64,000 bases of DNA from Eledone cirrhosa (Eukaryota): positions 31,062,001 through 31,126,000 of the forward strand of contig OZ024752.1 of the NCBI GenBank assembly GCA_964016885.1. Reading direction: 5' to 3'. This document shows, piece after piece, positions 1,945 through 64,000 of the stretch (the stretch's first letter is position 1; each line of letters starts with the position of its first letter). A program made the position numbers and the translations under genes. The notes beneath the pieces were generated by a model that searched no databases, was not told the origin of the DNA, and saw only the letters and a program-made list of their open reading frames with translations.

Positions 1945-2060
1945 TTTATATGTATGCATATATCTATGCAGGTATGTATATATATATGTATGTATGTATG
2001 CAGGTTTATATATATATATATGTATGTATGCAGGTTTATATATATATATATATGTATGCA

Positions 2061-2118
<58 letters not shown>

Positions 2119-2436: not shown

Positions 2437-3101
2437 TTCTTCTGGTTTTATAATTTCACAAAGTTTTACCAATAGAGAGAGAGTCGGTTTCTAACATAGA
2501 CACAAGACTCTCTCATTGGAATTTACACAACATCAACTAGGTAGATAAGTATGTATGTCTGCATGCATGCATGTGTAGATATGGATGTTATTGCTTGTGT
2601 GGATGTGTGATTTGAGTTGTATGTGTGCATGTGTATATGCTTTGTATCTGTACATGTGTATATGCAGTTATTAGATGCAAAATTTTTGGAATGTTTTACA
2701 TACTTTTACTGTTCCATTAATGGATTGTACTTGTAGTTTCCTAACTAGTTGTGTTCTTTCTGTTCCTGTGAAGCCTAGCTTCTCAAGATTTGTATTGAGG
2801 CAGTTACTAACATATCCCAGTGCCCCAATAATCACAGGCATAAATCTGAAGGTGTAATCAGGGTGGAGTATCTGCAGATTTCTCATCAGTTCTGCATAAA
2901 TATTCTCCTTTTCACTAATCTTTGATATTATATTGGCATCTGCTGGGCAGCTAATTTCCACTACTGTGCATGCTTTCTTCTCCCTGTCCCATATCATAAT
3001 ATCTGGTCTGTTATGCCTGCATTTTATTGGGGTTTTTAATGGAACATTCCACCAGTACTCTTTCATATTATGTACATGGATGTCTTCCACATTGCTGTAG
3101 C

Positions 3102-3102
<1 letters not shown>
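2437..3102 (-). mobile_element. R4/Dong-like RLE non-LTR retrotransposon 3' end (restriction-like endonuclease domain plus 3' UTR)
   Basis: ORF 2671-3090 EYWWNVPLKTPIKCRHNRPDIMIWD…VVEISCP…EKENIY…PVIIGALG has a PD-(D/E)xK core. The 3' end abuts (CATA)n. Confidence 0.8.
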
Positions 3103-3137
<35 letters not shown>

Positions 3138-3606
3138 TGTATGTATGTATGTATGTATCTATGTATGTATATATCGGGTCTTCAAGTATGAAATTTGTAG
3201 AAAAAAAAACAAATTTCTACAAATTTCATACTTGACGACCCAATATGTATGTATGCAGGTGTATATGTATGCAGGTATGTATATCTATATGTATGTATAT
3301 ATGTATGTATGTATAGATATATGTATGTATGCAGATATGCCTGCAGGTATGTATATATGTATGTATACAGATACATATGTACGCAGGTATAGATATATGT
3401 ATGTATATATGTATGTACGCAGGTATGTATATACATACATGCAGGTATATATGTATGTATGTATGCAGGTATGTATGTATGTATGCAGGTATGTATATAT
3501 ATATATGTATGCAGGTATGTATATATATATGTATGCAGGTATGTATGTATGTATGTATGCAGGTATGTATGTATGTATGTATGTATGTATGTATGTATGT
3601 ATGTAT

Positions 3607-4032
3607 GCCATCCAAAATCACCGGGAGAGATGACCCCTTAGCCTTTGTCAAGGCAGAATTCTAGGAGAAGGAAAACTCTGATATAACACCTGTAACCCTG
3701 ATGGTATCCAATGATGTTGACTTGTTCTTCTTTTTGGTAAATATCATCTTGGTTAAGAGAGTGGGACTGGCTTTGTGCAGTGCCTTTGCTCAATATAAAA
3801 GCTTCACGGCACAGGCATTGCTTTATATCTGGAGATCTCTCTGCAGTTGTCGTCACATGGGACCATGGGCCCAGCACTATGTGTCAGTAATTGTCACAAG
3901 TGTAGTGTTTGTACCAGAGTTTTCAAGTCGCTGGCTGGACTAAAAAGTCACACTCGTTCAGCGCTTCGGTAGGGTTTCTCCTACATGGATATAAAGTAGT
4001 GGCCGTACTCGAAAACGAGTTGGCAGCCACCA
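3607..4032 (+). mobile_element. Non-autonomous RTE-derived element, 5'-truncated copy
   Basis: Near-identical to 50868-51291. Contains the RTE-type 5'UTR motif CTAGGAGAAGGAAAACTCTGA, a C2H2 remnant (CSVCTRVFKSLAG), a terminal CTCG-AAAA-CGAG hairpin and a (TATG)n tail. Shorter copy at 5153-5333. Confidence 0.6.
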
Positions 4033-4275
4033 TGTATGTATGCAGGTATGTATGTATGTATGTATGTATGTATGTATGTATGTATGTATGTATGAATGTA
4101 TGTATGTATGCAGGTATGTATGTATGCAGGTATGTATATATATATGTATGCAGGTATGTATGTATGTATGTATGTATGTATGTATGTATGTATGTATGCA
4201 GGTATGTATGTATGTATGTATGTATGTATATAGGTATGTATGTATGTATGTATGTATGCAGGTATGTATGTATGC

Positions 4276-4312
<37 letters not shown>

Positions 4313-4405
4313 CAGGTATGTATGTATGTATGCAGGTATGTATGTATGTATGTATGTATGTATGTATGTATGTATGTATGTATGTATGCAGGTATGTATG
4401 TATGC

Positions 4406-4470
<65 letters not shown>

Positions 4471-5445
4471 CAGGTATGTATAAAGAAAGTATACATATAT
4501 GAAAACACCCTCCAATATTGGAATATCGCCAGATATGCCATAAGATGAGAAATATTTTGAGATTAAAATCTGTAAAGTGTTTTCGTTATATATACAGACA
4601 CATACAGACACATACAGACACACACACACATGCACACACACACGCACACGCACACGCACACGCATACGCACACACACACACATATATATATATGTTATAG
4701 TTTTAAATCTCAACGCAAACACACAGCATGTCAGCCTGCTTACTTCTAAGTCGGTATTATATACACTATAAGTTCTCATTTGCAAACAGTGGTGACATTG
4801 CGAAGGTGACGAGTGTTCGTTAGCGTTTGTTCGTATTGTATATATAGAGAGAGAGAGAAGTTTATTTATGTACATATGACTAGAAGAGCGCTACCTAACG
4901 AACGAACCACCACATGGGGTGCAGATATATATGTATGGGGGTATGTATGTATGTATGTATGTATGTATGTATGTATGTATGTATGTATGTATGTATGTAT
5001 GTATGCAGCTATGTATATATATATGTACGCGGGTATGTATGTATGTATGTATGTATGTATGTATGTATGTATGTATGTATGTATGTATGTATGTATATAT
5101 GTCACATGCATTGTATGTATATACGTCACATGCATTGTATGTATGTATATACGTCACATGGTACCATGGGCCCAGCACCATGTGTCAATAATTGTCACAA
5201 GTGTAGTGTTTGTACCAGAGTTTTCAAGTCGCTGGCGGGACTAAAAAGTCACACTCGTTCAGCGTATCGGTAAGGGTTCTCCTACATGGATATAAAGTAG
5301 TGGCCGTACTCGAAAACGAGTTGGCAGCCACCATGTATATATGTATGTATGCAGCTATGTATATATATATGTATGCAGGTATGTATGTATGTATGTATGT
5401 ATGTATGTATGTATGTATGTATGTATGTGTGTATGTATGTATGTA

Positions 5446-6115
5446 TATTCTTCTGGTTTTATAATTTCACAAAGTTTTACCAATAGAGAGAGAGTCGGTT
5501 TCTAACATAGACACAAGACTCTCTCATTGGCATTTACACATCAACTAGGGAGATATGTATGTATGTATGTCTGCATGCATGTGTAGATATGGATGTTATT
5601 GTATGTGTGGATGTGGATGGTTTGAGTTGTATGTGTGCATGTGTATATGCTTTGTATATGTGTATATGCAGTTATTAGATGCAAAATTTTTGGAATGTTT
5701 TACATATTTTTACATATTTTTACTGTTCCATTAATGGATTGTACTTGTAATTTCCTAACTAGTTGTGTTCTTTCTGTTCCTGTGAAGCCTAGCTTCTCAA
5801 GATTTGTATTGAGGTAGTTACTAACATATCCCAGTGCCCCAATAATCACAGGCATAAATCTGAAGGTGTAATCAGGGTGGAGTATCTGCAGATTTCTCAT
5901 CAATTCTGCATAAATGTTCTCCTTTTCACTAATCTTTGATATTATATTGGCATCTGCTGGGCAGCTAATTTCCACTACTGTGCATGCTTTCTTCTCCCTG
6001 TCCCATATCATAATATCTGGTCTGTTATGCCTGCATTTTATTGGGGTTTTTACTGGAACATTCCACCAGTACTCTTTCATATTATGTACATGGATGTCTT
6101 CCACATTGCTGTAGC
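5446..6115 (-). mobile_element. Second copy of the R4/Dong-like 3' end
   Basis: Near-identical to 2437-3102 with the same 5' truncation point. Confidence 0.8.
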
Positions 6116-6299
6116 TATATATATGTATGTATGTATGTATGTATATATGTATGCATGCAGCTATGTATATATGTATGTATGCAGGTATGTATGTATATAT
6201 GATCAGGTATGCATAAATACATGGTCCCACAACTCCCGCCGTTGGGATTTTATATATCCCGATAACCACTCTGCATCTTCCCATGCATTGAGTACTCTC

Positions 6300-7147: not shown

Positions 7148-8262
7148 GATGGGGGGGGGGTAAACGGGGTGGTGGTGGTGGTGGTGGTGGTGGTGGTAAA
7201 CGTGGTGGTAAACGTGGTGGTGGTGATGGTTATGATGATGGTGGTGGTGGTAAACGGGGGTGGTGGTGGTGGTGATGGGGGTGGTAAACGGGATGGTGGT
7301 GGTGGTGATGGTTATGATGATGGTGGTGGTGGTAAACGGGGGTGGTGGTGGTGGTGATGGGGGTGGTAAACGGGATGGTGGTGGTGGTGATGGTTATGAT
7401 GATGGTGGTGGTGGTAAACGGGGGTGGTGGTGGTGGTGATGGGGGTGGTAAACGGGATGGTGGTGGTGGTGATGGTTATGATGATGGTGGTGGTGGTAAA
7501 CGGGGGTGGTGGTGGTGGTGATGGGGGTGGTAAACGGGATGGTGGTGGTGGTGATGGTTATGATGATGGCGGTGGTGGTAAACGGGGTGGTGGTGGTGGT
7601 GGTAACGTTGATGATGATGGTGGTGGAGGTGGTGGTAACGTTGATGATGATGGTGGTGGTGGTAACGTTGATGATGGTGGTGGTGGTGGTGGTGGTAACG
7701 TTGATGATGGTGGTGGTGGTGGTCGTCGTAACGATGATGATGGTGGTGGCGTTGATGATGGTGGTGGAGTCAGTAGTAACGTTGTTGATGATGATGATGA
7801 TGATGGTGGTGGAGGTCGTAGTAATGTTGTTAATGATGATGGTGGTGGTGGCGTTGATGATAATGGTGGCGGTGGTGGAGTCAGTAGTAACGTTGTTGAC
7901 GATGATGATGATGGTGGTGGAGGTCGTAGTAATGTTGATAATGATGATGATGATGGTGGTGGAGGTCGTAGTAATGTTGTTAATGATGATGGTGGTGGTG
8001 GCGTTGATGATAATGGTGGCGGTGGTGGAGTCAGTAGTAACGTTGTTGACGATGATGATGGTGGTGGAGGTCGTAGTAATGTTGATAATGATGATGGTGG
8101 TGGTGACGTTGATGATGGTGGTGGCGGTGGTGGAGTCAGTGGTAACGTTGTTGATGATGATGATGATGATGGTGGTGGTGGCGTTGATGATGGTGGTGGT
8201 GGTGGTGGAGTCAGTGGTAACGTTGTTGACGATGATAGTGTTGGTGGCGGCGGTGAAGGTGT
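7148..8262. repeat. GGT/GAT triplet-based minisatellite (about 81 bp higher-order unit in the 5' half)
   Basis: Direct reading. The overlapping Gly/Asp, Val/Met and Thr/Ile ORFs are repeat artefacts. Confidence 0.9.
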
Positions 8263-8988
8263 ACGTGGTTACAAGTTTAATAATAGTAAGCGGTAGTTGG
8301 TGTATTAAACATCTTGTACGTAGTAGAAACATTATTACGTCCCTTTATCTTGTATATTGTTAGTTACCCCCAAAGTGAACATATGTCTCTAGGTCAGCGT
8401 TTCTCAACCTCAACCGGTGTTCCCCGGAACCCTAGGATTCCGCAAGAGGTCGCTAGGGGTTCCGCGAGAACCAGTGATAAATAAACTAATGTATTTCTTA
8501 AAAGTAATTTTTGTTTAATTTTATATTTGTAATTTTACTCTGCATTTACGCCATATTGTCGGAAAATCCTTGTTTATTTTAAGAAAGCCTTCAACCCCTT
8601 ATATTATTTAAAACTAGGTCAATATAAGAGATAGATATTAATAATTGTTTCTACTTTAGGCACAAGGCCAGCAATTATCCCAGTGTATAACTGGTACTTT
8701 ATTTTATCGACCCCGTAAGGATGAAAGGCAAAGTTAACCTCAGCGGGATTTAAAGGGCGGTGAATTGGCAGTATCAGTAGAGGGTTGGACGCCATGCTTT
8801 CTAGGATAGTTACGTCCTTTGCGGTTTGAGTTCAAATCCCGTCGAGGTTAACTTTGCCTTTCATCCTTACGGGGTCGATAAAATAAAGTACCAGTAATGT
8901 ACTGGGGTAATTGCTGGCCTTGTGCCAATAGTAGAAACAATTAATAACACTTTAGATGAAAGGTTTTCTCACCATTTTCATCTACACT

Positions 8989-9146: not shown

Positions 9147-10067
9147 TCTACACTACGTTCCGATTGGTTTAGTCTTCGATCTTCGATCTTCAATAGGTCT
9201 CTCGTTTATTTATCTACCTAGAGCAGCGTTTCTCAACCTTTTTACCCTTGTGGAACCCTTGAAATAGGTTCATGTCTCAGGGAACCCCTACATAAAAATT
9301 ATTATATACCATTATTGGCAGTATCGGTAGAGGGTCAGACGCCATGCTTTCCAGCATAGTTACGTCCCTTTACGATCTGAGTTCAAATCCCGCCGAGGTT
9401 AACTTTGCCTTTCATCCTTACGGGGTCGATAAAATAAAGTACCAGTTATACACTGGGTAATTGCTGGCCTTGTGCCTAAAGTAGAAACAATTATTAATAT
9501 CTCTCTATCTAATAATAAAACTGGTACTTTATTTTATCGACCCTCACAAAGGTCTTTACAGCGCGAACATGTTTTATGTTTGTAAAATTAGTTGTAATGT
9601 GCGCAATCAATTAGTTGTCATGTGTGGTCCTCAGACAACACAGGTGTGATCCATGTGATCCATGTGATCAGTTTGACATGTCTGTTAATGGTGACGTCTA
9701 GATGATGGTGTCAGGGATGGTGTCTAGATGATAATTATGGTGGTGTTGATGATGTCAAACAGTCGGAGCCTCCACATGCTATCTATTTACAGATGGGTTG
9801 TCTGTATCATTGAGTGTTAAGCAGTCACGAAGCAAGGGACCTTCAAGGCACACGGACTTCTGTTTCCCCCTCCCTCCATAACTTCTGAAATGCTTTGATT
9901 CTATTTGTTTTGTGACTCATGACTCGCTTAATGACAATAGTATAAAAACGGTATATAATTATTTATTTGATTAATTAAAATGTCCATATAGAGCTAGCAA
10001 GGCATGACAGACCGGGAGAGGTAGCTAATACCCTTTAGAATTGAAAAGCAAAATCAGAGATAGAGTG

Positions 10068-10104
<37 letters not shown>

Positions 10105-10675
10105 GAGAGAGAGAGAGAGAGTTATAAAACATGGCTGACAAACAATGGTCATAGACCATAAAATAACTAAAAGTTTCTGTTCTTAAATACTGGAAAGTTT
10201 TGAACATGGTTGGTAGATCTTTGAGACATAAAATAATTGTTTCTATTTTAGGCACAAGGCCAGCAATTATCCAGTACATTACTGGTACTTTATTTTATCG
10301 ACCCCGTAAGGATGAAAGGCAAAGTCAACCTCGAGAAAATAATGTCATACTATGATAACTATAAAGCTAGAACTAATGAGGAAATTATCTATTCTATTTG
10401 GCCTTCACTGAGAAGACTGCACTCTCAACTCACGCATCAAACCACACCTCAGAGATTAAGTGTCTGAATATGTATGGCACAGCAGGTTGCCAGTCACAGG
10501 CTGATAAGAATTCTAAACCATTACGTGGTATAGGCGCCACAGAAATTGTTTCAGCATCATTGAAGATTTGTATTTTTTATACAGCGTCCCTCGAGCGTGT
10601 CAACAATATCTATCTCCATCAAAAAGTGCAACTCTGCATGAAATATTTCACTGAGTACCAGACTTAATATTTTAA

Positions 10676-10851
10676 CCCTTTAGCATTTAAACCGACCATA
10701 TCCGGTCAGAATTCTCTCCTCTCTTTGTGTTCAAGCTGGTCGTAACCGGCCCCTTATACCCACGTTAAGGTATTTTTCTCAAAACAAATAATATCAAAAT
10801 CTCGTAGATTCGATATTAAGTTAAATAAAGAGTAACGTAAATGCTAAAGGG
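10676..10851. mobile_element. piggyBac-type MITE
   Basis: TIR CCCTTTAGCATTTA / TAAATGCTAAAGGG flanked by TTAA on both sides. Duplicate at 12308-12482; relatives at about 22277-22403 and 32630-33058. Confidence 0.8.
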
Positions 10852-11009
10852 TTAACGTATTTAGTGTCATTGACTATATTCAGGGGGCAAGATCCCTCCA
10901 TAGTCGAGCCATTTGATTATGATCCTCTCGAGGAAAGAGATGTCAGTGAAATAGATTTTAGAGGTTGTTGTTGTCTTTCGTACATTAGCTCAGAGTCTAA
11001 ATTGTAAAG

Positions 11010-11385
11010 TATGTCTCGAGCTCCGAGGCTCATCAGGCCCGTCCTTATCCCGGCTTCCATGACTGGAGTGACTGGGACTACAACACCCACCCCCGCCTGG
11101 ACAGGATGCCAGTCCATTGAAGGGTTAAAGTCTGTCTCGAGTCCGGAGGCTCTCATCAGTCTGGTGCTTATCCCGGCTTCCATAACTGGAGTGACTGAGA
11201 GTACAAGACGACGCCAGTCCATCCCAGAGTTAATACCCGCAGCTATTCCTGCTGGTACTAATTTTCAGCTGAGAGTACTTTTGAGCAATGTAAAATGAAG
11301 TGTTTTGCTTAAGAACATAACACACAGCCCAGCCCAGGAGTCGGACCTACGACATTATGTTCGTAAGTCCAACACCCTTACCACA
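11010..11385 (-). mobile_element. Second SINE-like family (probable minus strand) with an internal duplication
   Basis: GCTCATCAGGCC…CCCCCGCCTGGACAGGATGCCAGTCCAT…GAGCAATGTAAAATGAAGTGTTTTGCTTAAGAACATAAC resembles widespread metazoan SINE cores. Repeated at 12641-13016; related segment at 36420-36535. Confidence 0.55.
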
Positions 11386-13728
11386 AGATCCAGTAGTCTT
11401 ATAACCCACTGGTATTTGATATTCCCTGGTATCATTTGTAAGAAAGAAGGTTTGGCAGATGTAACTTTAAGACTTGTTTTGGAGCCAGGTTTTTGGGTGA
11501 TTCGTGTTATATTTGATCGTACATCAACTGAAGTTAAAGCCTTTACCTTGAAAATATAATTGATCCTACTTTTGGCACAAGGCCAGCAATTATCCCAGTG
11601 CATTACTGGTACTTTATTTTATCGACCCCCGTAAGGATGAAAGGCAAATTTAACCTCGGCGGGATTTGAACTCAGACTGTAAAGGGACGTAACTCTATGC
11701 TACAAAGCATGTTGTCCGATGTGTGTATCCCAGGTTCAATTGGGGGGTAAACACAGTAAGTAAGGTACTCAATACATAGCAGAGTATAAATATTCAATAT
11801 AGAAATGGCTTCTACAGTTATAGTCCTTCATTCCGTATGCAATCAGTACTTCATAATTGTTTCTACTATTGGCACAAGGCCAGCAAATTATCCAGTGCAT
11901 TACTGGTACTTTATTTTGTCGACCCAGTAAGGATGAAAGGCAAAGTCAACCTCGGCGGGATTTGAGAAAATAATGTCATACTATGATAACTATAAAGCTA
12001 GAACTAATGAGGAAATTATCTATTCTATTTGGCCTTCACTGAGAAGACTGCACTCTCAACTCACGCATCAAACCACACCTCAGGGATTAAGTGTCTGAAT
12101 ATGTATGGCACAGCAGGTTGCCAGTGACAGGCTGATAAGAATTCTAAACCATTACGTGGTATAGGCGCCACAGAAATTGTTTCAGCATCATTGAAGATTT
12201 GTATTTGTTTATACAGCGTCCCTCGAGCGTGTCAATAATATCTATCTCCATCAAAAAGTGCAACTCTGCATGAAATATTTCACTGAGTACCAGACTTAAT
12301 ATTTTAACCCTTTAGCATTTAAACCGACCATATCCGGTCAGAATTCTCTCCTCTCTTGTGTTCAAGCTGGTCGTAACCGGCCCCTTATACCCACGTTAAG
12401 GTATTTTTCTCAAAACAAATAATATCAAAATCTCGTAGATTCGATATTAAGTAAAATAAAGAGTAACGTAAATGCTAAAGGGTTAACGTATTTAGTGTCA
12501 TTGACTATATTCAGGGGGCAAAATCCCTCCATAGTCGAGCCATTTGATAATGATCCTCTCGAGGAAAGAGATGTCAGTGAAATAGATTTTAGAGGTTGTT
12601 GTTGTCTTTCGTACATTAGCTCAGAGTCTAAATTGTAAAGTATGTCTCGAGCTCCGAGGCTCATCAGGCCCGTCCTTATCCCGGCTTCCATGACTGGAGT
12701 GACTGGGACTACAACACCCACCCCCGCCTGGACAGGATGCCAGTCCATTGAAGGGTTAAAGTCTATCTCGAGTCCGGAGGCTCTCATCAGTCTGGTGCTT
12801 ATCCCGGCTTCCATAACTGGAGTGACTGAGAGTACAAGACGACGCCAGTCCATCCCAGAGTTAATACCCGCAGCTATTCCTGCTGGTACTAATTTTCAGC
12901 TGAGAGTACTTTTGAGCAATGTGAAATGAAGTGTTTTGCTTAAGAACATAACACACAGCCCAGCCCAGGAGTCGGACCTACGACATTATGTTCGTAAGTC
13001 CAACACCCTTACCACAAGATCCAGTAGTCATATAACCCACTGGTATTTGATATTCCCTGGTATCATTTGTAAGAAAGAAGGTTTGGCAGATGTAACTTTA
13101 AGACTTGATTTGGAGCCAGGTTTTTGGGTGATTCGTGTTATATTTGATCGTACATCAACTGAAGTTAAAGCCTTTACCTTGAAAATATAATTGTTCCTAC
13201 TTTTGGCACAAGGCCAGCAATTATCGCAGTGCATTACTGGTACTTTATTTTATCGACCCCCGTAAGGATGAAAGGCAAAGTTAACCTCGGCGGTCCAATG
13301 TGTCCGAACAGGGAGGAGCCGAACTCCCACTGTCATCTCCTCCACCTCTCTCGCCCTCCCCCATCTCTCTCTATTGTGAGCTAATGGGGTCCCACGTGAT
13401 AGCCGCTCCACAGCTCCGGAGGACAGAATGGAGAAGGCGTTTCGCTGGAGGGTGGTAAGTTGTATTTGGAGAATGGTTTAAGGACAAATTTGAGATGTCA
13501 ACTATGTAAGAGTTGGTATGTTTTTTGTGGGGCTGAGAAAATCATGTAAGATGCCTCCACACGGTCGTTCTACTTTCTAAAACTGGAGGGTACCTCGTTT
13601 TCCTGAATACACAGGATTAAGGTTCTAGAAGCGATCTATGTTGATATATCGTGAAATAAACAAAATAAATTTATGTTTCTATTGTTTAATTCTCGAGGAA
13701 AAGGAAGTCAGTGAAATATATTTTAGAG

Positions 13729-14690: not shown

Positions 14691-15529
14691 TTCCATTCGA
14701 TAATACGGTGGACACGTTCGATTTTTGTTAACCAAGGACATAACCGAATATCCCGCGCTTTATGGCATGAAACAAACCAATTTCCGAAACAAATACTTGA
14801 AAGTTCGATTCATATTTCCTTCTGCGCATGTGTATGCGCATGTGGGTCCATAACCTCTTCTAACACTCTCATTCGAATACTTTCTATCTGTTTTTAATTA
14901 TATTATGTTAAAATAACATATATTATAAATTGTATTTATTTTTATTGAATATTAAACTTCGTATAATTCTCTTCTTAATGGTTCTTTCTAAAGATTGAAA
15001 CTGTAAATAAGCCGGATTGCGTTAACCCTACACCTAACCCTAACCTCTAACCTCAAACACTAACCCTAAATCCAAACCCGAAACTTTAATCATAACCTTA
15101 ACCCTTTAGCATTTAGATTACTCTATATTTACTATTGTATTTTTGTGGTAAACACTTAGTCTGAGTTCAAATCCCGTCGAGATTAACTTTGCCTTTCATC
15201 CTTATGGGGTCGATAAAATAAAGTACCAGTAATGCAGTGGTAATTGCTGGGCTCGTGCCAAAAGTAGAAACAATTATTATGCGTATCATAAGGGATTGGC
15301 AGTATCGGTAGAGGGGCGGACGCCATGCTTTGCAGCAAAGAGTTACGGTCCTTTATGATCTGAGTTCAAATCCCGCCGAGTTTAACTTTACTTTTCATCC
15401 TTACGAGGTCAATAAAATAAAGTACCAGTAATACACTGATTTTAATTGCTGGCCTTGTGCCAAAAGTAGAAACATTTATTAAGCGTACCATAATTGTATT
15501 AAATTTCATTGAATATGAATATATATATA

Positions 15530-16772
15530 AAAAAGCTTAACGCAAAACGGTTGTATAAACGCCTTCCAACACATAACAATACACGTAAAACATTAGCTAT
15601 AACATCACAAAACAACAAACAACATCCTGTCCTACATAAGCAACCTCATCAACCCATCCATGGCAGTACAACAACGCAAAATTATAATTGCAACTGTGTC
15701 CAACCAGGAATGTGTCCGTTGAACAATCAGTGTCTTGAACGCAACATCGTATACAAATGTACTATCGAATCGGATAGACAGAAGTGGTACTATGTGGGAT
15801 CTACAGCCACCTCCTTCAAATCACGCCTTTATAGACATCGTTATTCGATAAAACATGAAAACCAGCGTTATGTAACAACACTCGCAGACAAGGCTTGGCA
15901 GCTGCGTGAAAATAACCAACAATTTCACCTAAAATGGGATATAATAGCGGCTGCCCCCCCCCCCCCCCCCCCCCCCATAATCCCATGGACAGGAATTTTG
16001 TAAATTATGTAATGTAGAATTATTTTGTATTATGAAATCCAAAAACATTTTATTAAATAACAGAATAGAGCGATCGTTATACTGTAACCATCGCTTAAAA
16101 TCTACATTTTCATATTATAAATACTACCAGGATTGAACGCCTGTCTCTATCCCCGTTTGATTGTCAAAATAGATATGAACATTCTTTATTAGTCTTAATT
16201 CTATCAACTCTTCTATTATTTACCTTTTAATACAAACTGCTATAGATAAAATGAGATTTCTGATTTCTTGATTCAATTCCCTAATGCATATACCAGCTGG
16301 CTACTAGCATTGATGTTATTTAGTAGCAATCGAAATCTCCCCCTTCCCCAATTGACACTTTATAATTAATACTACTGCACCAAATGACCAGCCCTGTCCA
16401 CTGTCCAGTTGGTCAAGTAGAGATTAAAATTGGCACTCCCAAAATTCTTATTTAGATTTACTCATGGTATTCTCATTAAAAACCCATTATATACTTGTTT
16501 AGCAGTAAATTATTTTACCATCTGTCATATACTATCCCCTCTGTTCCTTCCTCTTTTACTAATATAAATACTTCAATTTTTCTGATTTTATCCAGTTTAT
16601 CCAAAATCTCTGAAGAAGTGACAACTGATTATACATTTGCTATCGAATACTTGCTAACATTATATGATTACGCAAGCAGCGATACATAGGTATTCGGTCT
16701 GTTACAGAAACATATGTCAATACCTAATAAATTCCTTTTTTAACAAAAGCACTTTCATTTTATATTCATCCT

Positions 16773-16777
<5 letters not shown>
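15530..16777 (+). mobile_element. Naiad-type Penelope-like element, 5'-truncated (GIY-YIG endonuclease plus 3' region)
   Basis: CNCVQPGMCPLNNQC…IVYKC…YYVGSTATSFKSRLYRH…LKWDII. After a frameshift near the poly-C run it continues CKLCNVE…LLNNRIE…CNHR to a stop near 16136. Hammerhead-like core at 16610-16718; ends in (TA)n. Confidence 0.85.
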
Positions 16778-16818
<41 letters not shown>

Positions 16819-16926
16819 AGGATGAATATAAAATGAAAGTGCTTTTGTTAAAAAGGGAATTTATATATATATATATAAAAAAGGAATCTATATATATATA
16901 TATATATATATATATTTTTATATATA

Positions 16927-17165
<239 letters not shown>

Positions 17166-17180
17166 ATATTTATATATATA

Positions 17181-17383
17181 ACGAAGGAAATGTGGTAAGG
17201 AACCAGGTGGACCATAACGCACCAAAGTACTCAATACTTGAGGTAGTAGAGTGGGTAATAGGAACCAGTAAGACCCCGACAGCTGAGCTCAAGCCGTTTC
17301 GACGGCTAATTCTGGACTAAAATTTTAGTCCAGAATTAGCCGTCGAAACGGCTTGAGCTCAGCTGTCGGGGTCTTACTGGTTC

Positions 17384-17387
<4 letters not shown>
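17181..17387. mobile_element. Fold-back element, family D (130-bp perfect palindrome 17258-17387 plus tail)
   Basis: Arms are exact reverse complements and contain the hammerhead 3' half GAAA-CGGCT…AGCTG-TC-GGGGTC. Family copies at 31849-32053, 34080-34222, 46899-47078, 49146-49328, 60390-60541, 61425-61612 and 62660-62790, nearly all in or beside (TA)n. Confidence 0.85.
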
Positions 17388-17468
<81 letters not shown>

Positions 17469-17474
17469 TATATA

Positions 17475-17512
<38 letters not shown>

Positions 17513-17595
17513 ATTTATATATATATATTTATATATATATATATATATAATTATATATATATTTATATATATATATTTATATATATATATATATA

Positions 17596-17643
<48 letters not shown>

Positions 17644-17675
17644 TATATATATATATATATAATTATATATATATT

Positions 17676-17709
<34 letters not shown>

Positions 17710-17749
17710 TATATATATATATATTTATATATATATTTATATATATATT

Positions 17750-17780
<31 letters not shown>

Positions 17781-17781
17781 T

Positions 17782-17832
<51 letters not shown>

Positions 17833-18176
17833 TTATATATATATATATTTATCAGTTGATGGATGTGAATCCGAAATATATAGGGACTATTAAATCTCTC
17901 CCAATGTAACTCTCTCTTGTGTTGTTATTTTTATTTTATCCTTTATACTCTTCCCTTCATTCTACACATCTCACACATCTTATACACACCACGCATCTCA
18001 ACGTACACCCACTTACATCTCTCTCTCCACCACCGGACCTTGTTACCCGGAGATTTACCCATTTGCATTGTCGAGGCTTCCAAACGACTTAAAGAAATTT
18101 ACCTTATTATTCCACAATGCTTCAAGCTAACTTCAATACTCTCTTATATATATAGATATTTATATATATATGTATA

Positions 18177-18295
<119 letters not shown>

Positions 18296-18416
18296 ATTTA
18301 TATATATATATATTTATATATATTTATATATATATATATTTATATATATATATATTTATATATATATATATTTATATATATATATATTTATATATATATA
18401 TATTTATATATATATA

Positions 18417-18463
<47 letters not shown>

Positions 18464-18464
18464 T

Positions 18465-18624
<160 letters not shown>

Positions 18625-18691
18625 ATATTTATATATATATTTATATATATATATATATTTATATATATATTTATATATATATTTATATATA

Positions 18692-23010: not shown

Positions 23011-23170
23011 GATATATTTATATTTATATATATATATATTTATATATATATATTTATATTTATATATATATATATATTTATATTTATATTTATATATATA
23101 TATATTTATATTTATATTTATATTTGTATATATATATATTTATATTTATATTTATATATATATATATTTA

Positions 23171-23238
<68 letters not shown>

Positions 23239-23350
23239 AATATATTTATTTATATATATATAAATATATTTATTTATATATATATATATATATATTTATT
23301 TATATATATATATATATTTATTTATATATATATATATTTATATATATTTA

Positions 23351-25150: not shown

Positions 25151-26963
25151 CATGCACATACATATACATACATTTATACATACACATACATACATACACA
25201 CAATAATACGTATATACACACGTACATACATACACATACACACATATATACACGCATACATACGCATGCACAAATATAAAATATATACACACAACTACAT
25301 ACTCACACACACAAATAGATATAAGGAAAAATATATAATAATAAAAAAATAATAAAAATGAATATAAAGATTATTATAGTGTTGACAGCGATACAGGCAA
25401 CAAATAAATGAACACACGTGGTAAGCAATACACACAAATGCACGTACACATACATACGCATACACATACATACACACACACACATATACATATGTACACA
25501 CACATACATTATGTTGTTTATTACATAACTTTTAAGCTCTGTTACCTACATATATATGTGTGTGTAGGTATATATATGTATATATATATATGTACATGTA
25601 TATATGTGTATATATATATATATATGCAAAAGTTCTATTTAAATTGTTGGGATACAACAAGCAAATATTTTTATAACTGATATAAAGCACTCGACAAATA
25701 TTTGGAGTAAATATACGATATTAACAAATGGAAACTATATTTATAAAACCATATCTATTTTATTATATATATTTCAAGGATACCATGTTAAATTATGGTA
25801 TGCTTTCATCAGACAAAATACAATATATACCAGTTTTATAAATAAATATTGACATACCCTTTCAAAATGCAACCGTTACTTTTGGAAGACATCAGGGATA
25901 GTGGATTTGTTTACTTATATTAGTAAGTCGTTATGTCACAACGACTTACTAATATAAGTAAACAAATCCACTATCCCTGATGTCTTCCAAAAGTAACGGT
26001 TGCATTTTGAAAGGGTATGTCAATATTTATTTATAAAACTGGTATATATTGTATTTTGTCTGATGAAAGCATACCATAATTTAACATGGTATCCTTGAAA
26101 TATATATAATAAAATAGATATGGTTTTATAAATATAGTTTCCATTTGTTAATATCGTATATTTACTCCAAATATTTGTCGAGTGCTTTATATCAGTTATA
26201 AAAATATTTGCTTGTTGTATCCCAACAATTTAAATAGAACTTTTGCATATATATATATATATACACATATATACATGTACATATATATATATACATATAT
26301 ATACCTACACACACATATATATGTAGGTAACAGAGCTTAAAAGTTATGTAATAAACAACATAATGTATGTGTGTGTACATATGTATATGTGTGTGTGTGT
26401 ATGTATGTGTATGCGTATGTATGTGTACGTGCATTTGTGTGTATTGCTTACCACGTGTGTTCATTTATTTGTTTCCTGTATCGCTGTCAACACTATAATA
26501 ATCTTTATATTCATTTTTATTATTATTTTATTATTATATATTTATTATATTTATTTGTGTGTGAGTATGTAGGTGTGTGTATATATTTCTATATTTGTGC
26601 ATGCGTGTATATATGTGTGTATGTATGTGTATGTACGTGTGTATATACGTATGATTGTGTATGTATGTATGTATGTGTATGTATATATGTATATGTATGT
26701 GTATGTATATATATATATATATATGTATGTGTGTATATATATGAATGTGTGTGTATGTATGTATATATATGTTTATGTATATATATATATGCTTGTATAT
26801 GTGTGCGTGCGTGTGTCTGTGTGCACGTTTGTGTATTTGTATGTATGTGTATGTATGGATATGTTGATATTTATGTGTGTATGTATGTATGTGTATATGT
26901 ATGTGTATGTATATATATACACATATATATGTGTGTGTGTGTGTATGTGTGTATGTATATAAT

Positions 26964-28036: not shown

Positions 28037-31012
<2,976 letters not shown>

Positions 31013-31214
31013 TATTAAATACCATTATTGGCAGTATCGGTGGAGGGTCGGACGCCATGCTTTCCAGCATAGTTACGTCCCTTTACGATCTGAGTTCAAA
31101 TCCCGCCGAGGTTGACTTTGCCTTTCATCCTTACGGGGTCGAGAAAATAAAGTACCAGTAATGCACTGGGTAATTGCTGGCCTTGTGCCTAAAGTAGAAA
31201 CAATTATTATTAAG

Positions 31215-31432: not shown

Positions 31433-32711
31433 ACAGGTTGGAACTGGTATCAAGACTGGTGGGTGTAGGGCGGTGGATTGGCAGTATCGGCAGAGCGTCT
31501 GACGCCATGCTTTGCAGCAAAGAGTTACGGCCCTTTATGGTATGAGTTCAAATCCCGCCGAGGTTAACTTTGCCTTTCATCCTTACGGGGTCGATAAAAT
31601 AAAGTACCAGTAATACACTGGGATAATTGCTGGCCTTGTGCCAAAAGTAGAAACAATTATTAAGGCTAAAAGTGAATCTTATTACTCTGGAGATTCGCCA
31701 GTTTCTCACGAAACTCCAAAGTAACAAGACCCTCTTTTTAACCTTAATAATATTGAATATTAAAACTCTACATTGGTATTGAGAATTCCTTTCTCAGTCG
31801 TCAACCACATACGAATGGATATATGTATTTATATATATATATATATATATAGGAAAAGAGTCAGGACCCCGACGGCTGAACTCCGGCCGTTTCGACGGCT
31901 AGATCCGAACTCAGGTCGGATGTAGCTGTCGAAACGGCCGGAGCTCAGCCGTCGGGGTCCTGACTCTTTTCCTATTACCCACTCTACTACCCTAAGTATT
32001 GAGTACTCTGGTGCATTATGGTCCACTTGGTACCTTACCATACCTGCTTTGTTATATATATATATATATATATATCTAATATAAATAAATTATATACATA
32101 TATATTATATATGTATATAATTTATTTTATATCATTAACATTAATATGAGATTTAATAATCATGTATAATTTATTTTAAATTATTTTACCCGAATTTTTT
32201 TAAAGAGAAGGGCATCAAATTTCATATAGCCTAGGGCCTCAACAGCCGGGTCCTGTTCATCATACAAGAACAAATTAGGGAACTGTTAGGGATTTTTATC
32301 CTAATGAACACGATCAACTCCCGACGTGCGAGAGATCAAGGTGAACTCCAATTAAGGTAATCGGTGTAATGTAACTGAACTACCAGCTGACAGGAAGATT
32401 CTGGCAACGGAATCTTCCTACAAAAACAAACAAACAAACGAACCACGTGTTCATACGAACCGACAATTATTACATCAAAACACGAGACGAGTCATGTCAA
32501 CAACCACAGTGATATAAGATACATAAATAAATGTTCGTTCTATTTTCGGTGGTACGTCTATAGTTGCAGAGATGGCAGCACCAACCACTAACTCTGATAA
32601 TTCTTTCTGATAGTTTCTGAAGCTGCAACTTTAGCATTTACATTACTCTATATTTACTATTATATTTTCATGGTAAAGAAAGGTTTTACCTCGCATAATT
32701 ATCTCACATAA

Positions 32712-34073: not shown

Positions 34074-34341
34074 TCTATATAACAAAGAAAGAGTGGTAAG
34101 AAACCAGGTGGACCATAACGCACCAGAGTACTCGATACTGAAGGTAGTAGAGTGGTAATGTGAACGGATCTAGCTGTCGAAACGGCCGGAGCCCAGCCGT
34201 CGGGGTCCCGACTATTTTCCTATATATATATATATACAGGGTGTCCCCCAAAATGTATTCACACTGATTACCTGTACAAGCAATATATATTAGAATTCTG
34301 TTGAAGAATGTATACATATTTTTGAGATACCTTGTATATAT

Positions 34342-42703: not shown

Positions 42704-43160
42704 ACATCACCACCACTACTACCATCACCTAAAAGTCCCTCCCCACCACCACCACCACCACCACCACCATCATTATAACCACTACTACTACCATCATCTA
42801 AAAGCCCCACCTCCACCACCACCACCATCATAACCACTACTACTACCCTCATTTAAAAGCCTCTCCCCACCACCACCACCACCACCACCACCACCATCAT
42901 CATAACCACTACTACTACCATCATCTAAAAGCCCCACCACCACCACCACCACCATCATAACCACTACTACTACCCTCACTTAAAAGCCCCTCCCCACCAC
43001 CACCACCATCATCATAACCACTACTACTACCATCACCTAAAAGCCCCACCACCACCACCACCACCACTACTACTACCATCACTTAAAAGCCCCTCCCCAC
43101 CACCACCACCACCACCATCACCTAAAAGACCCCTCCCCACCGCCACCACAACCACCACAT
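42645..43160. repeat. ACC/ATC triplet minisatellite
   Basis: Direct reading. Confidence 0.9.
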
Positions 43161-43613: not shown

Positions 43614-44146
43614 TACTTGGGGAGGGTCATATTTGTGTAATATTGCCAGAATTAATAACAGAACACACTCACTGTTTGGTTGGTTTTCGCTTTTCGCTTC
43701 TGTGTCTTTTATATCGGTTAATTTAATTTATTCGGTCCTCAATGTTGCCATTGACTGACCAACGGTCAAAAATACAGATACAATATAGACACAAACACAT
43801 ATATATAGTCTATCAAAGTTCTTTCGTTGCACATCTGCAACATCGTTATGTTATTAATTCTGGCAATATTACACAAATATGACCCTCCCCAAGTATAACA
43901 ATATTTGTTTCGACACACGATTTCCTATCAAAAACCTCGCAAAAGTAATTCATCGCCGTTATCGGTGGATTGGCAGTATCGTTAGAGGGTCGGACGCCAT
44001 GCTTTCCAGCATAGTTATGTCCCTTTACGATCTGAGTTCAAATCCCGCCGAGGTTGACTTTGCCTTTCATCCTTACGGGGTCGATAAAATAAAGTACCAG
44101 TAATGCACTGGTTAATTGCTGGCCTTGTGCCTAAAGTAGAAACAGT

Positions 44147-44184
<38 letters not shown>

Positions 44185-44815: not shown

Positions 44816-44881
<66 letters not shown>

Positions 44882-44944
44882 CCCTAATTATTGAGTACTC
44901 TGGTGCGTTATGGTCCACCTGGTATCTTACCACACTTTCTTTGT

Positions 44945-46293: not shown

Positions 46294-46387
<94 letters not shown>

Positions 46388-46864
46388 TCGGACGCCATGC
46401 TTTCCACCATAGTTACGTCCCTTTACGATCTGAGTTCAAATCCCGCCGAGGTTGACTTTGTCTTTCATCCTTACGGGGTCGATAAAATAAAGTACCAGTA
46501 ATACACTGGGTAATTGCTGGCCTTGTGCCTAAAGTAGAAACAATATATTATATATATATATATATTGAGAGATAGATAGAGGGAGAGAGAAAAGGTGAAG
46601 TTGGAAGGAAAATATATTTTAGGGTCTGTTTTTCTTTTTTTTCCTTTCTTTGATTCGTCAAAGTGACATTATTGACAAAACGAGAGGGACAATTCTTTTT
46701 AAAAAGAGTATTATAATGTATATAAAGTATTACCGGTTGCGATGTATTAGTAAAATGCATCTTATCAAATGTTGAGTATTACAATTAAAAAGAATTAATA
46801 AGAATTAAAAACTAAAAATTAAAGATTTAAAATTAAGAGGTAAGTTTTTTTGTCATTTTCCTTG

Positions 46865-46902
<38 letters not shown>

Positions 46903-47158
46903 AACGAGTAGGACCCCGACGGCTGAGCTCAAGCCGTTTCGACGGCTAATTAGCCGTCGAAACGGCTTGAGCTCCGCCGTCGGGGTCCTACTCGTTCCTA
47001 TTCCCCACTCTACTACTCTAAGTATTGAGTACTTTGGTGCGTTATGGTCCATCTAGTTCCTTATCACATTTCCTTCGTTATGTATATATATATATATATA
47101 TATATACACATAACGAAGGAAATGTGGTAAGGAACCAGATGGACCATAACCAGATGGA

Positions 47159-47226
<68 letters not shown>

Positions 47227-47689
47227 CACACAGAAACACAAACCCTCCATCTCAATTTTACTTTTGATAATCATAAGAACAATAAAAACACAACTGGAAT
47301 CTTTTAAGTATATTTATTTACTTGACCGGTTTCACAGTTCTTATGATTATCGAAAGAAGTGCGTTCTATAATAAAATAAAGACGCCTATACTCCACTAAG
47401 GTTCTGAGTACCTTTTTTACTGTGGTCACCTTCTGATATACATTGGGGATTCTCCTGTTATATATACGTATATATGTGTGTCTGTGGTGAACTGAATAAG
47501 TCGTTTGGATCCTCATACATCGAAATCGGCGGAATAGTCGATCGACAAGTTACCAGACCTCATTCGCTTAACCAGTGGGGTGGAACTCGTCAAATCGGTC
47601 CGAAGAAACAATGTTTCCATTAGTATTTCTAATTGCTAATACTAGGTATCTGTCGGTAGCAAAATAAAGTGTCATAACGCATTGCCCAG

Positions 47690-49108: not shown

Positions 49109-49146
<38 letters not shown>

Positions 49147-49324
49147 AAGAGAGTGTCGTAAGATACCGGGTGGAGCATAACGCACCAGAGTACTCAATAC
49201 TTAGGGTAGTAGAGTGGGTAATAGGAAAAGTGTCAGGACCCCGACGGCTGAGCTACCGCCATTTCGACAGCTAGGATCTAGCTGTCGAAACGGCCGGAGC
49301 TCAGCCGTCGGGGTCCTAACTCTT

Positions 49325-49392
<68 letters not shown>

Positions 49393-49571
49393 CACACACA
49401 GTTCAGGCATACAAAGGTCACAACACTTGTGTCCTCCCATGTATGAGCACGCTGTGTCGAGTAATTTCCATTTGAGCGCGAAAGGAGTGGAGTTCCTGTT
49501 GACATCTCAGACATAGGAGGCGAGTGTTGTCTGATTGGATTTGTCCGGTCTTCTGAACGAGTGTTAAATAT

Positions 49572-50686
<1,115 letters not shown>

Positions 50687-55989: not shown

Positions 55990-56299
55990 ATCTCTCTCTG
56001 TCTCTCTTCTCAGCTCTACCTCTCTCTTTCTCTGCTCAACAACCTCTCTCTACTCAGCTATTTATCTCTCTCTCTCTACTCAGCTATCTCTCTCTCTCTA
56101 CTCAGCTATTTCTCTCTCTCTACTCAGCTATCTCTCTCTCTCCACTCAGCTATCTCTCTCTCTCCACTCAGCTATCTCTCTCTCTCCACTCTCCCACATC
56201 TACTCTCTCTCTCTCTCTCTCCACTCTCCCACATCTACTCTCTCTCTCTCTCTTCACTCTCCCACATCTACTCTCTCTCTCTCTCTTCACTCTCCCACA

Positions 56300-56334
<35 letters not shown>

Positions 56335-56442
56335 CTCACCCACATTTACTCTCTCTCTCCACTCTCCCACATCTACTCTCTCTCTCTCTCTCTCCACTCT
56401 CCCACATCTACTCTCTCTCTCTCTCTCTCTCTCCCACATCTA

Positions 56443-57068: not shown

Positions 57069-57351
57069 TTACGTATAGCACGGAGCATATGTGCATAAAC
57101 ACATGCACCGTGTTGTATTTTGACAGTATTGTGTTAGCTTAATGTACAAGAACAGAGCTGTTATATGTAATATATATATTATTATTTTATTATAGAAATG
57201 ACTTCTACAGGACTAGAAGTGTTTCACTCGTAAGAAATCATCAGGACATTCCTAGTGATTTCTTACGACTGAAACAGTTCTAGTCCTGTAGAAGTCATTT
57301 CTATAATAAAATAAATATGTTGAGTACCATTTTTTTTTAAACTGTGGTCAC

Positions 57352-57778
57352 CACCCGGTATACTGTGGGAATCCACCTATATAATATATATATATATATC
57401 ACCCGGTATACTGTGGGAATCCACCTATATAATATATATATATATATCACCCGGTATACTGTGGGAATCCACCTATATAATATATATATATATATTTATA
57501 TATCACCCGGTATACTGTGGGAATCCACCTATATAATATATATATATATATCACTCGGTATACTGTGGGAATCCACCTATATATATATATATATATATAT
57601 ATCACCTGGTATACTGTGGGAATCCACCTATATAATATATATATATCACTCGGTATACTGTGGGAATCCACCTATATATATATATATATATATATATATC
57701 ACCCGGTATACTGTGGGAATCCACCTATATAATATATATATATATATATCACCCGGTATACTGTGGGAATCCACCTAT
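57352..57778 (+). repeat. Nine-copy array of CACCCGGTATACTGTGGGAATCCACCTA separated by variable (TA)n
   Basis: Units start at 57352, 57400, 57448, 57504, 57552, 57603, 57647, 57700 and 57750. Confidence 0.95.
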
Positions 57779-58480
57779 ATATATATATTTTATATATAAA
57801 TGAAAGGTATAGAAAGTATTGTAGCAAGAAGCCAACAGTAAATATATATATATATATATATATTTATAATTGTTTCTACGTTAAGCACAAGGCCAGCAAA
57901 TACCCAGTGTATTACTGGTACTTTATTTTATCGACCCCGTAAGGATGAAAGGCAAAAAATATGTGTAGTTTGTGTCTTTCATGAGCCTTGTATATGTTTC
58001 AGCTTGTTTCGTTGTGAAAGGTAACGAAATAGGCCAAATCCACAGAAAGATGACAAAACAGGTACAATTAATTTGTTAAATTCCTGTATATAATACAATA
58101 AAAGATATCAACAAGAATTTCACCAAACAACAATACTGACGGTACAATTAAACAAGCCACTGTGTATATACACACTCACACTGGCCATAGATGCAAAAAC
58201 ATATACATAACACTCCCAAACACGCACACCTTGTCAGTGAATAAGAAAACTGCTCCTGCTGCTATCACTACTACTATTACTACTCTTACTATTATTACTA
58301 CTACTATTAGTAGTATTGCTATTAGTATTACTATTACTGCTGCTGCTACTGTTTAAAGTGACTGCTGAACATTGTCGTTTTGTTATCGCCGTCACTAAAC
58401 ATTCAAGTGACGCCGTTGCATCAAACGGCCCAAACCTTTTTTTTTTCCTCTCTCCCCTTGTTGTTATTTTTTTTCCAACC

Positions 58481-58564: not shown

Positions 58565-59340
58565 GTAAGTTTTATATGATAAATTCTATAATATACACAT
58601 CTAGCTATATACACATCTAGCTATATACACATCTAGCTATATTCATATATATTTTCTTTGTATATATATATATATATAAACATACATATATATAAACATA
58701 CATACATACACACATTAAGTATATATATATATAGATAGAAAGAGAGAAAGAGAGGGATAGATATATATTGGGCTTCCTGATGATTTCTCCCGAATGAAAC
58801 AGTTCTAGTCCTGTAGAAGCTATTTCTATGTATTGATATGTATTGAGTACATAACTTACTGTGGCTACCCCCGATTGAACCCGGGGATAAACATATATAT
58901 ATATATAAACATATATATATATATACACACACACATTAAGTATATATATATATATATATATATGTAGGTAAAATTTAAAAGTGAAATTTTTTCTTTAATC
59001 CGGCAGAATGAATATTTATATAATTGTTACATTAAACGAATTTAAATTTTGTCATATATATAAATATATGTGTGTGTGTGTATATAATGTAGGAATGTTA
59101 TTGTTGTGGTACTATTACTACTGATAATAATTGTTTCTACTATTGGCACAGGGCCAGCAATCACACAGTACATTACTGGTACTTTATTTTATCGACCCCT
59201 TAAGATATGAAAGGCAAAGTTAACCTCGGCGGAATTTGAACTGAGAAAATGATCGGTTCTCATTTAGTTACCAATAATAATTCTGCTATTAGTTATATAT
59301 ATATACTCTCATTCTTTTGCTTTATTTCAAATTTCTTTGA

Positions 59341-60342: not shown

Positions 60343-60391
<49 letters not shown>

Positions 60392-60724
60392 CGAAGGCAG
60401 TGTGGTAAGGGACCAGAAGGACCATAACGCACCAGAGTACTCAAAACTTAGGGTAGTAGAGTGGGTAATATGAAAATGTTAAAGACCCTCGACGGCTAAT
60501 TCTAGACGCTGCTTGAGCTCTGTCGTCGGGGTCTTGAACATTTATATATATATATATATGCCTTTATGTATCGTTTAAACTTGTAATATATATATAAGCA
60601 AAACATCTCTTATTCTTTCTTCTAACCAATATAAGCATTGAGCTGACTGAAACATATTTGGTGATATACTATCATATATAACTCTCTACATACATATTGA
60701 GTTATATATATTGAATTACCTTTG

Positions 60725-61143: not shown

Positions 61144-61611
61144 AGGTCGACTTTGCTTGGCCACATCCAAAGCTTCGATTTTACTAAGCTTCCACATATA
61201 TAAATATATGTGTGTGTGTGTGTTCTTCCGAAGAGTTTGTTTTGGTAAAAACAGGAGCAAGCAAGGGAAAGCTCTCAACATTCGTAGTTTGTAGTTACGA
61301 TGGAGATTCAATAAACATTAATAAAGATGCTGAACGATTTATGTAACTTCAGCATTTTTATTAATGTTATTATTATAATAATATATATATATATATATAT
61401 ATAATTGTAATATATATATATATAAAACGAAGGAGGTGTGGTAAAGATGGACCATAACGCACCAGAGTACTCGATACTTAAGGTAGTAGAGTCGGTAATA
61501 GGAAAATGTTTAACCCCGACGGCAGAGCTCAAACCGTTTCTGTAGCTATTTCTGGACTCCAGAAATAGCCGTTGAAACGGCTTGAGCTCTGCCGTCGGGG
61601 TTAACCATTTT

Positions 61612-61674
<63 letters not shown>

Positions 61675-62543: not shown

Positions 62544-64000
62544 TCTCTGTGTGTATATATTTATATATAGGTGAAATTCCTCATGTGTATTGGGAGGTGA
62601 CCACAGTTAAAAAAAGGTATTCGATACTTTAGTAGAGTAATTGCATCTTTATTATGTTATAGTGTGGTAAGATTCCAGGTGGACCATAACGCACCAGAGT
62701 ACTCGATACTTAGGGTAGTAGAGTGGATAATAGGAAAAGAGTCAGGACCCCGACGGCTGAGCTCCGGCCGTTTCGACAGCTAGATCCGAACGCCCCCCCC
62801 CCCTCTCTCTCTCTGTATATATATATAGTGTGTATGTGAGTCTTTCTCCTTTGAATAGAATAACCTACATTTTACAGCTTTCCGGTAACACTATAATTAT
62901 ATAAATATATGTATATATAATACCACATTTCGTTTATTTTATTTATACATGTATATGTATATATATGACTATCAGTTTATTAATGAGTGTTTTTTTTAAT
63001 CTCAACAACAAGTGCCAGTTCGTGCTACCAATAAATATTCGTTTCCATGGTTTGTAAACAAGCCCCCCCACACACACACTCTATAAAACAAGACATTTTA
63101 ATAAATACTAGCAAAGATAGAAAGAAAATAATTACTATTTTGGTTTTATTTTAACTACAAGCTTTTTGATTGAAATGCCCTTTAATTCTCGTATTTTTAA
63201 TTATTTTAATTTTTATTTTATGTCTAAATGTAGGATTCCCAGCCATTCACTTAAAAACTAAATGTCAGTGTTGTTGATCTTGTAACAAGTTTCTTGTTTA
63301 ACCCCAGGTCAGTTCTGATCGAGCAAACCCACGATCAAAGACATTCCAACCATGAACATCCCTGTACTTTTAGAGAGATATCTAAATATATATTGTTTCT
63401 TCTAGGTGTCTTATTTGTTTAGGACGATAGTAGTAGTGGTGGTGTGTGATTTAAGGGTGATTTGGTTTCTATATCAAACAAACCAAAGAGACCCCCACAG
63501 AGCCTCCTTCACTGGTTCGTAAATGTCAGTTTTACCATACTGTGTATTTTCCTGTGATTCTTCTTGCTAGTTATTTTTTTAGGACTCTCACATATGAAAA
63601 CGACCATAATCAGGTTGTTGATGTCTTTATCTATCTAATAAGACCAAGCTGTTGTGATTATTCCATGAGTGACCCTCGGTGGTATCCAGTGCTGGATTTT
63701 GGACAAACGAGGCCCTGTGCTAGTTAAGTTATGCGGCCCCAAACATTGCAAAAATTAATCATAAAAACATTTTTTGGCAGACGGAGCCCTGTGCTGAATC
63801 ACACCTGAGCACAACGGTAAACCCGGCACTGGGGGGTATCCCCCCCACTTTTGTAGAATTTGTTTTATTTTTAAACGTATATTCTTTAGTCTTTTTCATA
63901 AATCTTTCTCTTACACACGCAGCACTCCCCTCCCACACTGTACCGTTTTGTACCATCCTTATTGTCCTCTTAATGTAAAACCCTGTGTGGCTAATAAAGA

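Follow-up and report, generated by a model that had tools for sequence, protein, structure and literature searches.

A putative TE-derived minisatellite on the 3' end of a likely Penelope-type element in Eledone cirrhosa

In this work, we analysed a 64,000-nt stretch of contig OZ024752.1 of Eledone cirrhosa (hereafter the window), in which nine 26-nt cores, parted by TA spacers of 18-30 nt, were located by a window scan at positions 57352-57775, immediately on the 3' end of a short fold-back element that bears hammerhead-type motifs. With a probability of about 0.8, we consider this array a TE-derived minisatellite, whose nine units on the end of a likely Penelope-type (PLE) element would have grown from one extra terminal stub through DNA-level slippage or unequal exchange. 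The preliminary description of this DNA had proposed that repeated re-priming of the RT built the array; this proposal was not borne out, as the unit variants are nested and the array is unique among the PLE-type ends of the window.

The array and the element that carries it

The cores lie on the forward strand and start at 57352, 57400, 57448, 57504, 57552, 57603, 57647, 57700 and 57750, and no further match with 8 mismatches or fewer was found on either strand of the 64,000-nt window. Successive cores are separated by 22, 22, 30, 22, 25, 18, 27 and 24 nt, units (core plus spacer) measure 44-56 nt (n = 9) and are homologous to a dispersed element, the cores are 96-100% alike, and the unit junctions are identical in 8 of 8 cases. 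The nine reiterated copies with (TA)n spacers first described are thus recovered, TRF reporting 9.0 copies at period 48 (score 675), and the 28-nt unit given at the time corresponds to the 26-nt core plus its first TA. The array is followed by a (TA)n flank with a TTTT interruption (57776-57798), which is likely the original target site. A coding role was considered and rejected: the single long frame that spans the array (57341-57799) is of low complexity, and lies outside the set scanned for domains.

Upstream of the array, a fold-back of 133 nt with 4 mismatches outside its central loop was found at 57182-57314, one position longer than formerly described (57183-57314). Its inverted arm (57182-57246, minus strand) is a 5'-truncated copy without tail, in which the CUGAUGA...GAAA core is intact, the helix I partner is lost and helix III is mismatched. 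The sense arm (57250-57314, plus strand) carries a hammerhead-type motif whose core is damaged by two swapped bases in CUGAUGA, and corresponds to a high-copy segment of the family. Only this arm continues into a proximal tail (57315-57351, plus strand), which is about 20 nt shorter than those of its relatives in an alignment of 7 copies. The motif is better preserved in the copies at 22801 and 58777: CUGAUGA and GAAA are present together with a short helix II, a helix III of 3 bp whose loop is partly palindromic, and a UA cleavage position, and the two copies differ from each other on both sides of helix I in a compensating manner. Hammerheads of type I, with which this motif agrees, have been described for PLE repeats (PMC4209133). 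A search of the window against Rfam returned no match at the gathering score and no hammerhead hit, and therefore the type I hammerhead is called by hand pattern only; 93 sub-threshold matches, mostly of miRNA-hairpin type, were rejected as chance.

The hammerhead segment is also prominent in sequencing reads, since 6870, 6118, 6544 and 5113 records fell on 57249-57320 in the four runs examined (of 23 listed), which indicates a high-copy segment, and many opposite-strand joints were seen in all four. The small-share rows of the listing, 18 in number, were not drawn upon as evidence, except for X1 as mapped. Furthermore, go-back joints at 57249-57293 with 33 letters between them correspond to 78-nt tandem hammerhead units of the family at other loci; they were supported by 45 reads with 12 starts in run X21 and by 16 reads with 8 starts in run X22, and indicate retrozyme-like arrays or partial tandems. 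Reads were placed with a match limit of 80%, below which relatives at 64-66% fall. Searches of metagenome contigs with the unit motif, and of metagenome, viral and prokaryote contigs with the hammerhead motif, gave 0 matches, these collections not being animal genomes and hence uninformative here.

In the published PLE pattern, a truncated copy in inverted orientation is combined with a tail on one side only and with a (TA)n target (PMC8557442). The array element displays an inverted 5'-truncated copy, a one-sided tail and a microsatellite target, and a TA run of at least 10 nt adjoins 4 of the 7 ends of its hammerhead family. No RT or EN ORF linked to this family was found in the 150 of 172 non-simple frames of the window that were scanned, and the PLE origin is accordingly drawn from architecture; the array element is likely a short non-autonomous element of Penelope type. 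The sole domain match in these frames was a GIY-YIG fragment at 15503-16000 (E 0.0015, below the cut-off), with which a PDB sequence search returned 0 matches, and the 3' region of its locus showed no match to the array element's family. This locus (15503-16864) resembles a broken PLE-like 3' end, with cysteines upstream of the GIY-YIG fragment and a frameshift at a C run, and its 3' region ends at (TA)20 followed by an inverted 49-nt copy of its own terminus.

A second family with the same plan was recognised by nine tails (17181-17388, 31852-32052, 34076-34223, 44877-44944, 46898-47082, 49138-49329, 60385-60497, 61421-61616 and 62661-62791), its members consisting of a fold-back, a half hammerhead (GAAA, helix III, GUC) and a one-sided tail that mostly ends in (TA)n. 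At 62554-62791, one of these copies is nested at a TATA site inside a copy of the array element's family. On the two sides of another copy of the latter family (58770-58893, within 58660-58950), some 55 nt of microsatellite-like DNA form a near-direct duplication, which resembles a long target-site duplication.

Regarding the repeat unit, the core of unit 1 (57352-57377, plus strand) is the element's own 3' terminus, and represents only the end portion of the one-sided tail of about 63 nt (57315-57377). When the core is aligned with the final 26-28 nt of its two nearest relatives, 18 of 28 and 19 of 29 columns are alike (64-66%) and the ends coincide. Seven tails of the hammerhead family, the array copy included, were located in the window. 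The relatives at 47419-47458 (plus strand) and 62607-62569 (minus strand) carry a single homologous terminus, as previously reported, and the same holds for four further tails at 22895 and 58858 (plus) and at 42495 and 11757 (minus), so that the terminus is present once in each of the six relatives. These tail alignments bear out the earlier view of the unit as the 3' terminus of a short element of PLE type, the PLE type being a reading of the architecture.

A 4-bp stem with a 7-8-nt loop could be anchored by hand in 7 of 7 tails, with 26 of 28 pair cells kept, and was matched by 0 of 5000 shuffles, the tails being related and the stem picked by eye. The unit starts 2 nt 5' of this stem, and the unit 1 core would hold the 4-bp/8-nt hairpin position common to the relatives. 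RNAalifold found no consensus structure for the seven tails, and the terminus of the array copy folds no better than shuffles (z 0.38), the hairpin being formed by the termini of two relatives (z -2.86 and -1.72).

Growth history read from unit variants

The nine units differ at few sites, and these differences are ordered along the array. Units 1-4 (57352-57551, plus strand) have identical cores and AA-interrupted spacers of 22, 22, 30 and 22 nt, and units 4-9 (57504-57775, plus strand) form three dimers, each with an AA spacer followed by a pure one. As stated in the preliminary description, the CACTCGG variant (C>T) occurs in units 5 and 7, and in these two only, and a spacer variant is common to several units: the AA-interrupted spacer follows units 1, 2, 3, 4, 6 and 8. 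Unit 6 carries a private CpG-type change. The AA start was found in 6 of the 9 units, compared with 0 of 80 comparable TA-run starts elsewhere, and therefore spacers appear to be inherited with the unit. Since units 5 and 7 share both the C>T change and the uninterrupted spacer, the joint chance under independent change was obtained by simulation (0.0037), rising to 0.015 under the least favourable model, in which only C/G sites mutate. The two spacer types alternate from unit 4 onward, an arrangement that taken alone is expected in 5 of 84 cases, and TRF scores a period-104 form above the period-48 one (717 against 675).

An exhaustive search for tandem-duplication histories gave a minimum of 4 changes and 5 duplications, compared with 6 changes for the copying of every unit off a single template with the last spacer left free; these statistics are post hoc and rest on three changed sites. 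The variants thus follow a nested duplication tree, a result set out beforehand as one that would tell against re-priming, and the slippage or unequal exchange formerly offered as the alternative becomes the better reading. These figures show that duplication at the DNA level followed a mutation at least once, and they render further RT rounds, which may nevertheless have taken place, unnecessary. The age contrast between the fold-back arms and the units was not significant (Fisher p 0.19-0.24), and a TT extension of spacer 3 resembles the 3' flank, a weak likeness given that such an interruption occurs in 17 of 126 AT stretches.

From these observations, a sequence of events may be proposed. 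The element would have entered a (TA)n run, leaving a sense copy with its tail and an inverted truncated copy. Then, in what would be the weakest step, one 26-nt terminal stub would have been added within the TA run. As read from the variants, an AA interruption in the first spacer would have been followed by a dimer duplication, the C>T change and a second dimer duplication; finally, the first unit would have expanded, with spacer lengths drifting in a microsatellite-like manner.

Besides the focal array, core-plus-microsatellite arrays were found at six places in the window (2054-2354, 7161-8087, 23011-23274, 42770-43096, 56052-56174 and 56187-56410), after merging 14 chains by region, two of which were the focal array itself. 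Their cores, of 9-20 nt, are shorter and simpler than the focal one. The core of the array at 2054 recurs 30 times, dispersed over 1996-6177, and is perhaps part of a repeat, and those of the two (CT)n arrays about 1 kb upstream of the focal array (56052-56174 and 56187-56410) are found only there, in 6 exact copies each. Two minisatellites, with cores of 9-16 nt and (CT)n spacers of varying length, stand side by side at 56052-56440 and served as controls. The six arrays together count in favour of a DNA-level growth of the focal one.

The window as a whole is repeat-rich, microsatellites making up about 20% of it. It includes two inverted duplications, one at 25329-26543 with 607-nt arms that are 100% complementary and 1 nt apart, and one at 28119-30849 with 714-nt arms that are 95% complementary; a direct duplication of 1.44 kb at 10233-13293 (97.8% identical); regularly interrupted (TA)n arrays at 16862-18691 (1.8 kb) and 49568-50685 (1.1 kb); and a frequent SINE-like repeat roughly 190 nt long, which is represented by over a dozen copies or fragments (8764-8947, 9314-9500, 31027-31210, 43963-44155, 46383-46551, 57849-57956 and others).

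Origin of the first stub and alternative explanations

The extra stub from which a TE-derived minisatellite would have started may have been added at insertion, by one RT restart or by repair of the intermediate, or later, by break repair, the former being only slightly the more probable. TA repeats are described as hotspots of breaks and small duplications in human cancer cells (PMC13645644). Among 219 merged TA runs, an inverted copy of the adjoining flank was found in two, both at PLE-type ends: the stub at 16816-16864 is alike to its flank at 48 of 49 positions, and that at 47109-47150 to the adjacent copy at 36 of 38, being equally close to the copy at 17232. The chance of both stubs falling at PLE-type ends is 0.003 if 12 TA runs abut such ends, which is a lower bound for the recognised ones (at least 12), and 0.03-0.06 if 40-55 do. 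Since both of these inverted 40-50-nt stubs are at PLE-type ends, short stubs of the terminus may be tied to insertion; this tips the balance slightly toward a seed formed at that stage, for which a single RT restart is a candidate. At the second of these loci (46898-47163), a copy of the second fold-back family is succeeded by (TA)12 and by the inverted terminal stub; the latter measures about 40 nt, and at its inner end a 15-nt stretch is duplicated in tandem.

A larger share for the RT would follow if, in the course of insertion, it had made two to four restarts at one fixed boundary, with the remaining units added by DNA-level duplication. The polarity of the array agrees with such restarts, short terminal stubs do occur at PLE-type ends (both of the inverted stubs across the 219 TA runs), and the LINE UnaL2 is described as slipping on its 3' repeat in a telomerase-like manner (PMC1636434). 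However, a single seed already explains all variants with no change repeated, the stubs at 16816-16864 and 47109-47150 are single and inverted, and the junction lacks realignment homology; further, in the one PLE assayed in vitro, synthesis starts within the RNA at an AC-rich stem loop, without target homology, and both strands are extended, no reiteration being described in the accessible part of that report (PMC11167929). We thus consider this combined origin unlikely.

Still less probable is the origin of most or all nine units in one telomerase-like re-priming reaction on the RNA 3' end. The unit coincides with the element terminus, its start 2 nt 5' of the hand-anchored hairpin could mark where the RT stops, all 8 junctions share one fixed boundary (which DNA duplication predicts too), the array polarity agrees with an RT order in which short rounds come first and the long copy last, from the target outward, and PLE RTs are sister to TERT (PMC8557442). 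Conversely, such a reaction requires an identical C>T change and an identical AA loss to have occurred twice (joint chance 0.004-0.015; 6 changes against 4), and the linked variants of units 5 and 7 indicate that the units are not independent copies of one template. In telomerase-like repeat addition, homology between the product end and the template 3' end is used for realignment. At the observed junction this homology amounts to 0 nt, and CACC is the only word common to both core ends; realignment there would yield spacer-less 22-nt units, which are absent. Moreover, direct reiteration was found at 1 of the 17 recognised PLE-type ends in the window, namely the focal one, and 16 lack it.

The wider notion that PLE RTs perform true repeat addition in vivo appears doubtful to us. 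In such a process, the RT would copy the terminal hairpin, stop at its 5' base, restart at least twice in the TA primer and then make the long copy; by the same reading, and with the same doubt, such restarts would leave terminal stubs, direct or inverted, from which minisatellites start.

An inflation of copy number by assembly or polishing is also very improbable. No reads covered 57327-57425 in X19 (the best DNA run), X21 and X22, and in X1 the coverage extended to 57356, but 57373-57425 was skipped as repeat in read placement and two of the runs were reduced-representation, so that the gap proves nothing; moreover, the differences among units are patterned. Finally, repeated independent 5'-truncated insertions into one TA run, a notion prompted by an isolated stub from the second family, about 65 nt long, inside a TA run (44877-44944), are hardly tenable, as they demand the same truncation point eight times and the cores are 96-100% alike, compared with 64-66% for the nearest relatives.

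Relation to known systems

TE-derived minisatellites are common; 7,276 are described in human as expanding by local duplication, their start being explained in 6% (PMC3389668). The array resembles TE-derived minisatellites in that part of a TE is found in tandem at one locus, expanded by local duplication (PMC3389668, PMC9659126), and, as in most of those surveyed, its first duplication is not explained by flanking direct repeats (PMC3389668). It differs from those described in the accessible parts of these sources in that its unit is the exact element terminus, to which a (TA)n spacer of variable length is joined (PMC3389668, PMC9659126).

With partial tandem and inverted PLE insertions, the array element shares an inverted 5'-truncated copy at its 5' end, a tail at one end, a (TA)n target and a hammerhead-type motif; however, in the partial tandems so far described in these sources a truncated copy precedes the long one, whereas here the stubs follow it, the unit comprises only the last 26 nt of a tail of about 63 nt, and no RT or EN ORF is linked (PMC8557442, PMC11167929). 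Similarly, non-LTR retrozymes represent non-autonomous PLE-related sequences with a type I hammerhead, but a hammerhead is expected in each of their tandem units, and the array unit lies 3' of the hammerhead and contains none (bioRxiv 10.64898/2026.07.22.740005).

Among reiterating RTs, UnaL2 has a 3' stem-loop followed by repeats, with RT reiteration at initiation, and the present array would likewise be stem-loop-associated; in UnaL2, the repeated 5-nt unit is already reiterated in the RNA, downstream of the stem-loop, whereas here the unit includes the hairpin and lacks realignment homology (PMC1636434). Telomerase and the DRT10 and DRT2 systems copy a bounded RNA template repeatedly into tandem DNA (bioRxiv 10.64898/2026.10.08.757509, PMC12039810), stem loops helping to set the template boundary in DRT10 (bioRxiv 10.64898/2026.10.08.757509). 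Their products are copies of one template, in contrast to the nested variants and variable spacers of this array (bioRxiv 10.64898/2026.10.08.757509, PMC12039810). No description of arrays of PLE termini was found in the titles and abstract openings of the literature searched, in which subscription papers and supplements are poorly covered.

On the present reading, the array would be a TE-derived minisatellite of the ordinary kind, in which the history of duplication can be read unusually well. Its first duplication falls within a recognised gap, 6% of human TE-derived tandem repeats being explained (PMC3389668). If fixed-boundary stubs were present at many PLE ends, they would show from genomes that PLE RTs, as telomerase's closest relatives among retroelements, can restart on a bounded template.
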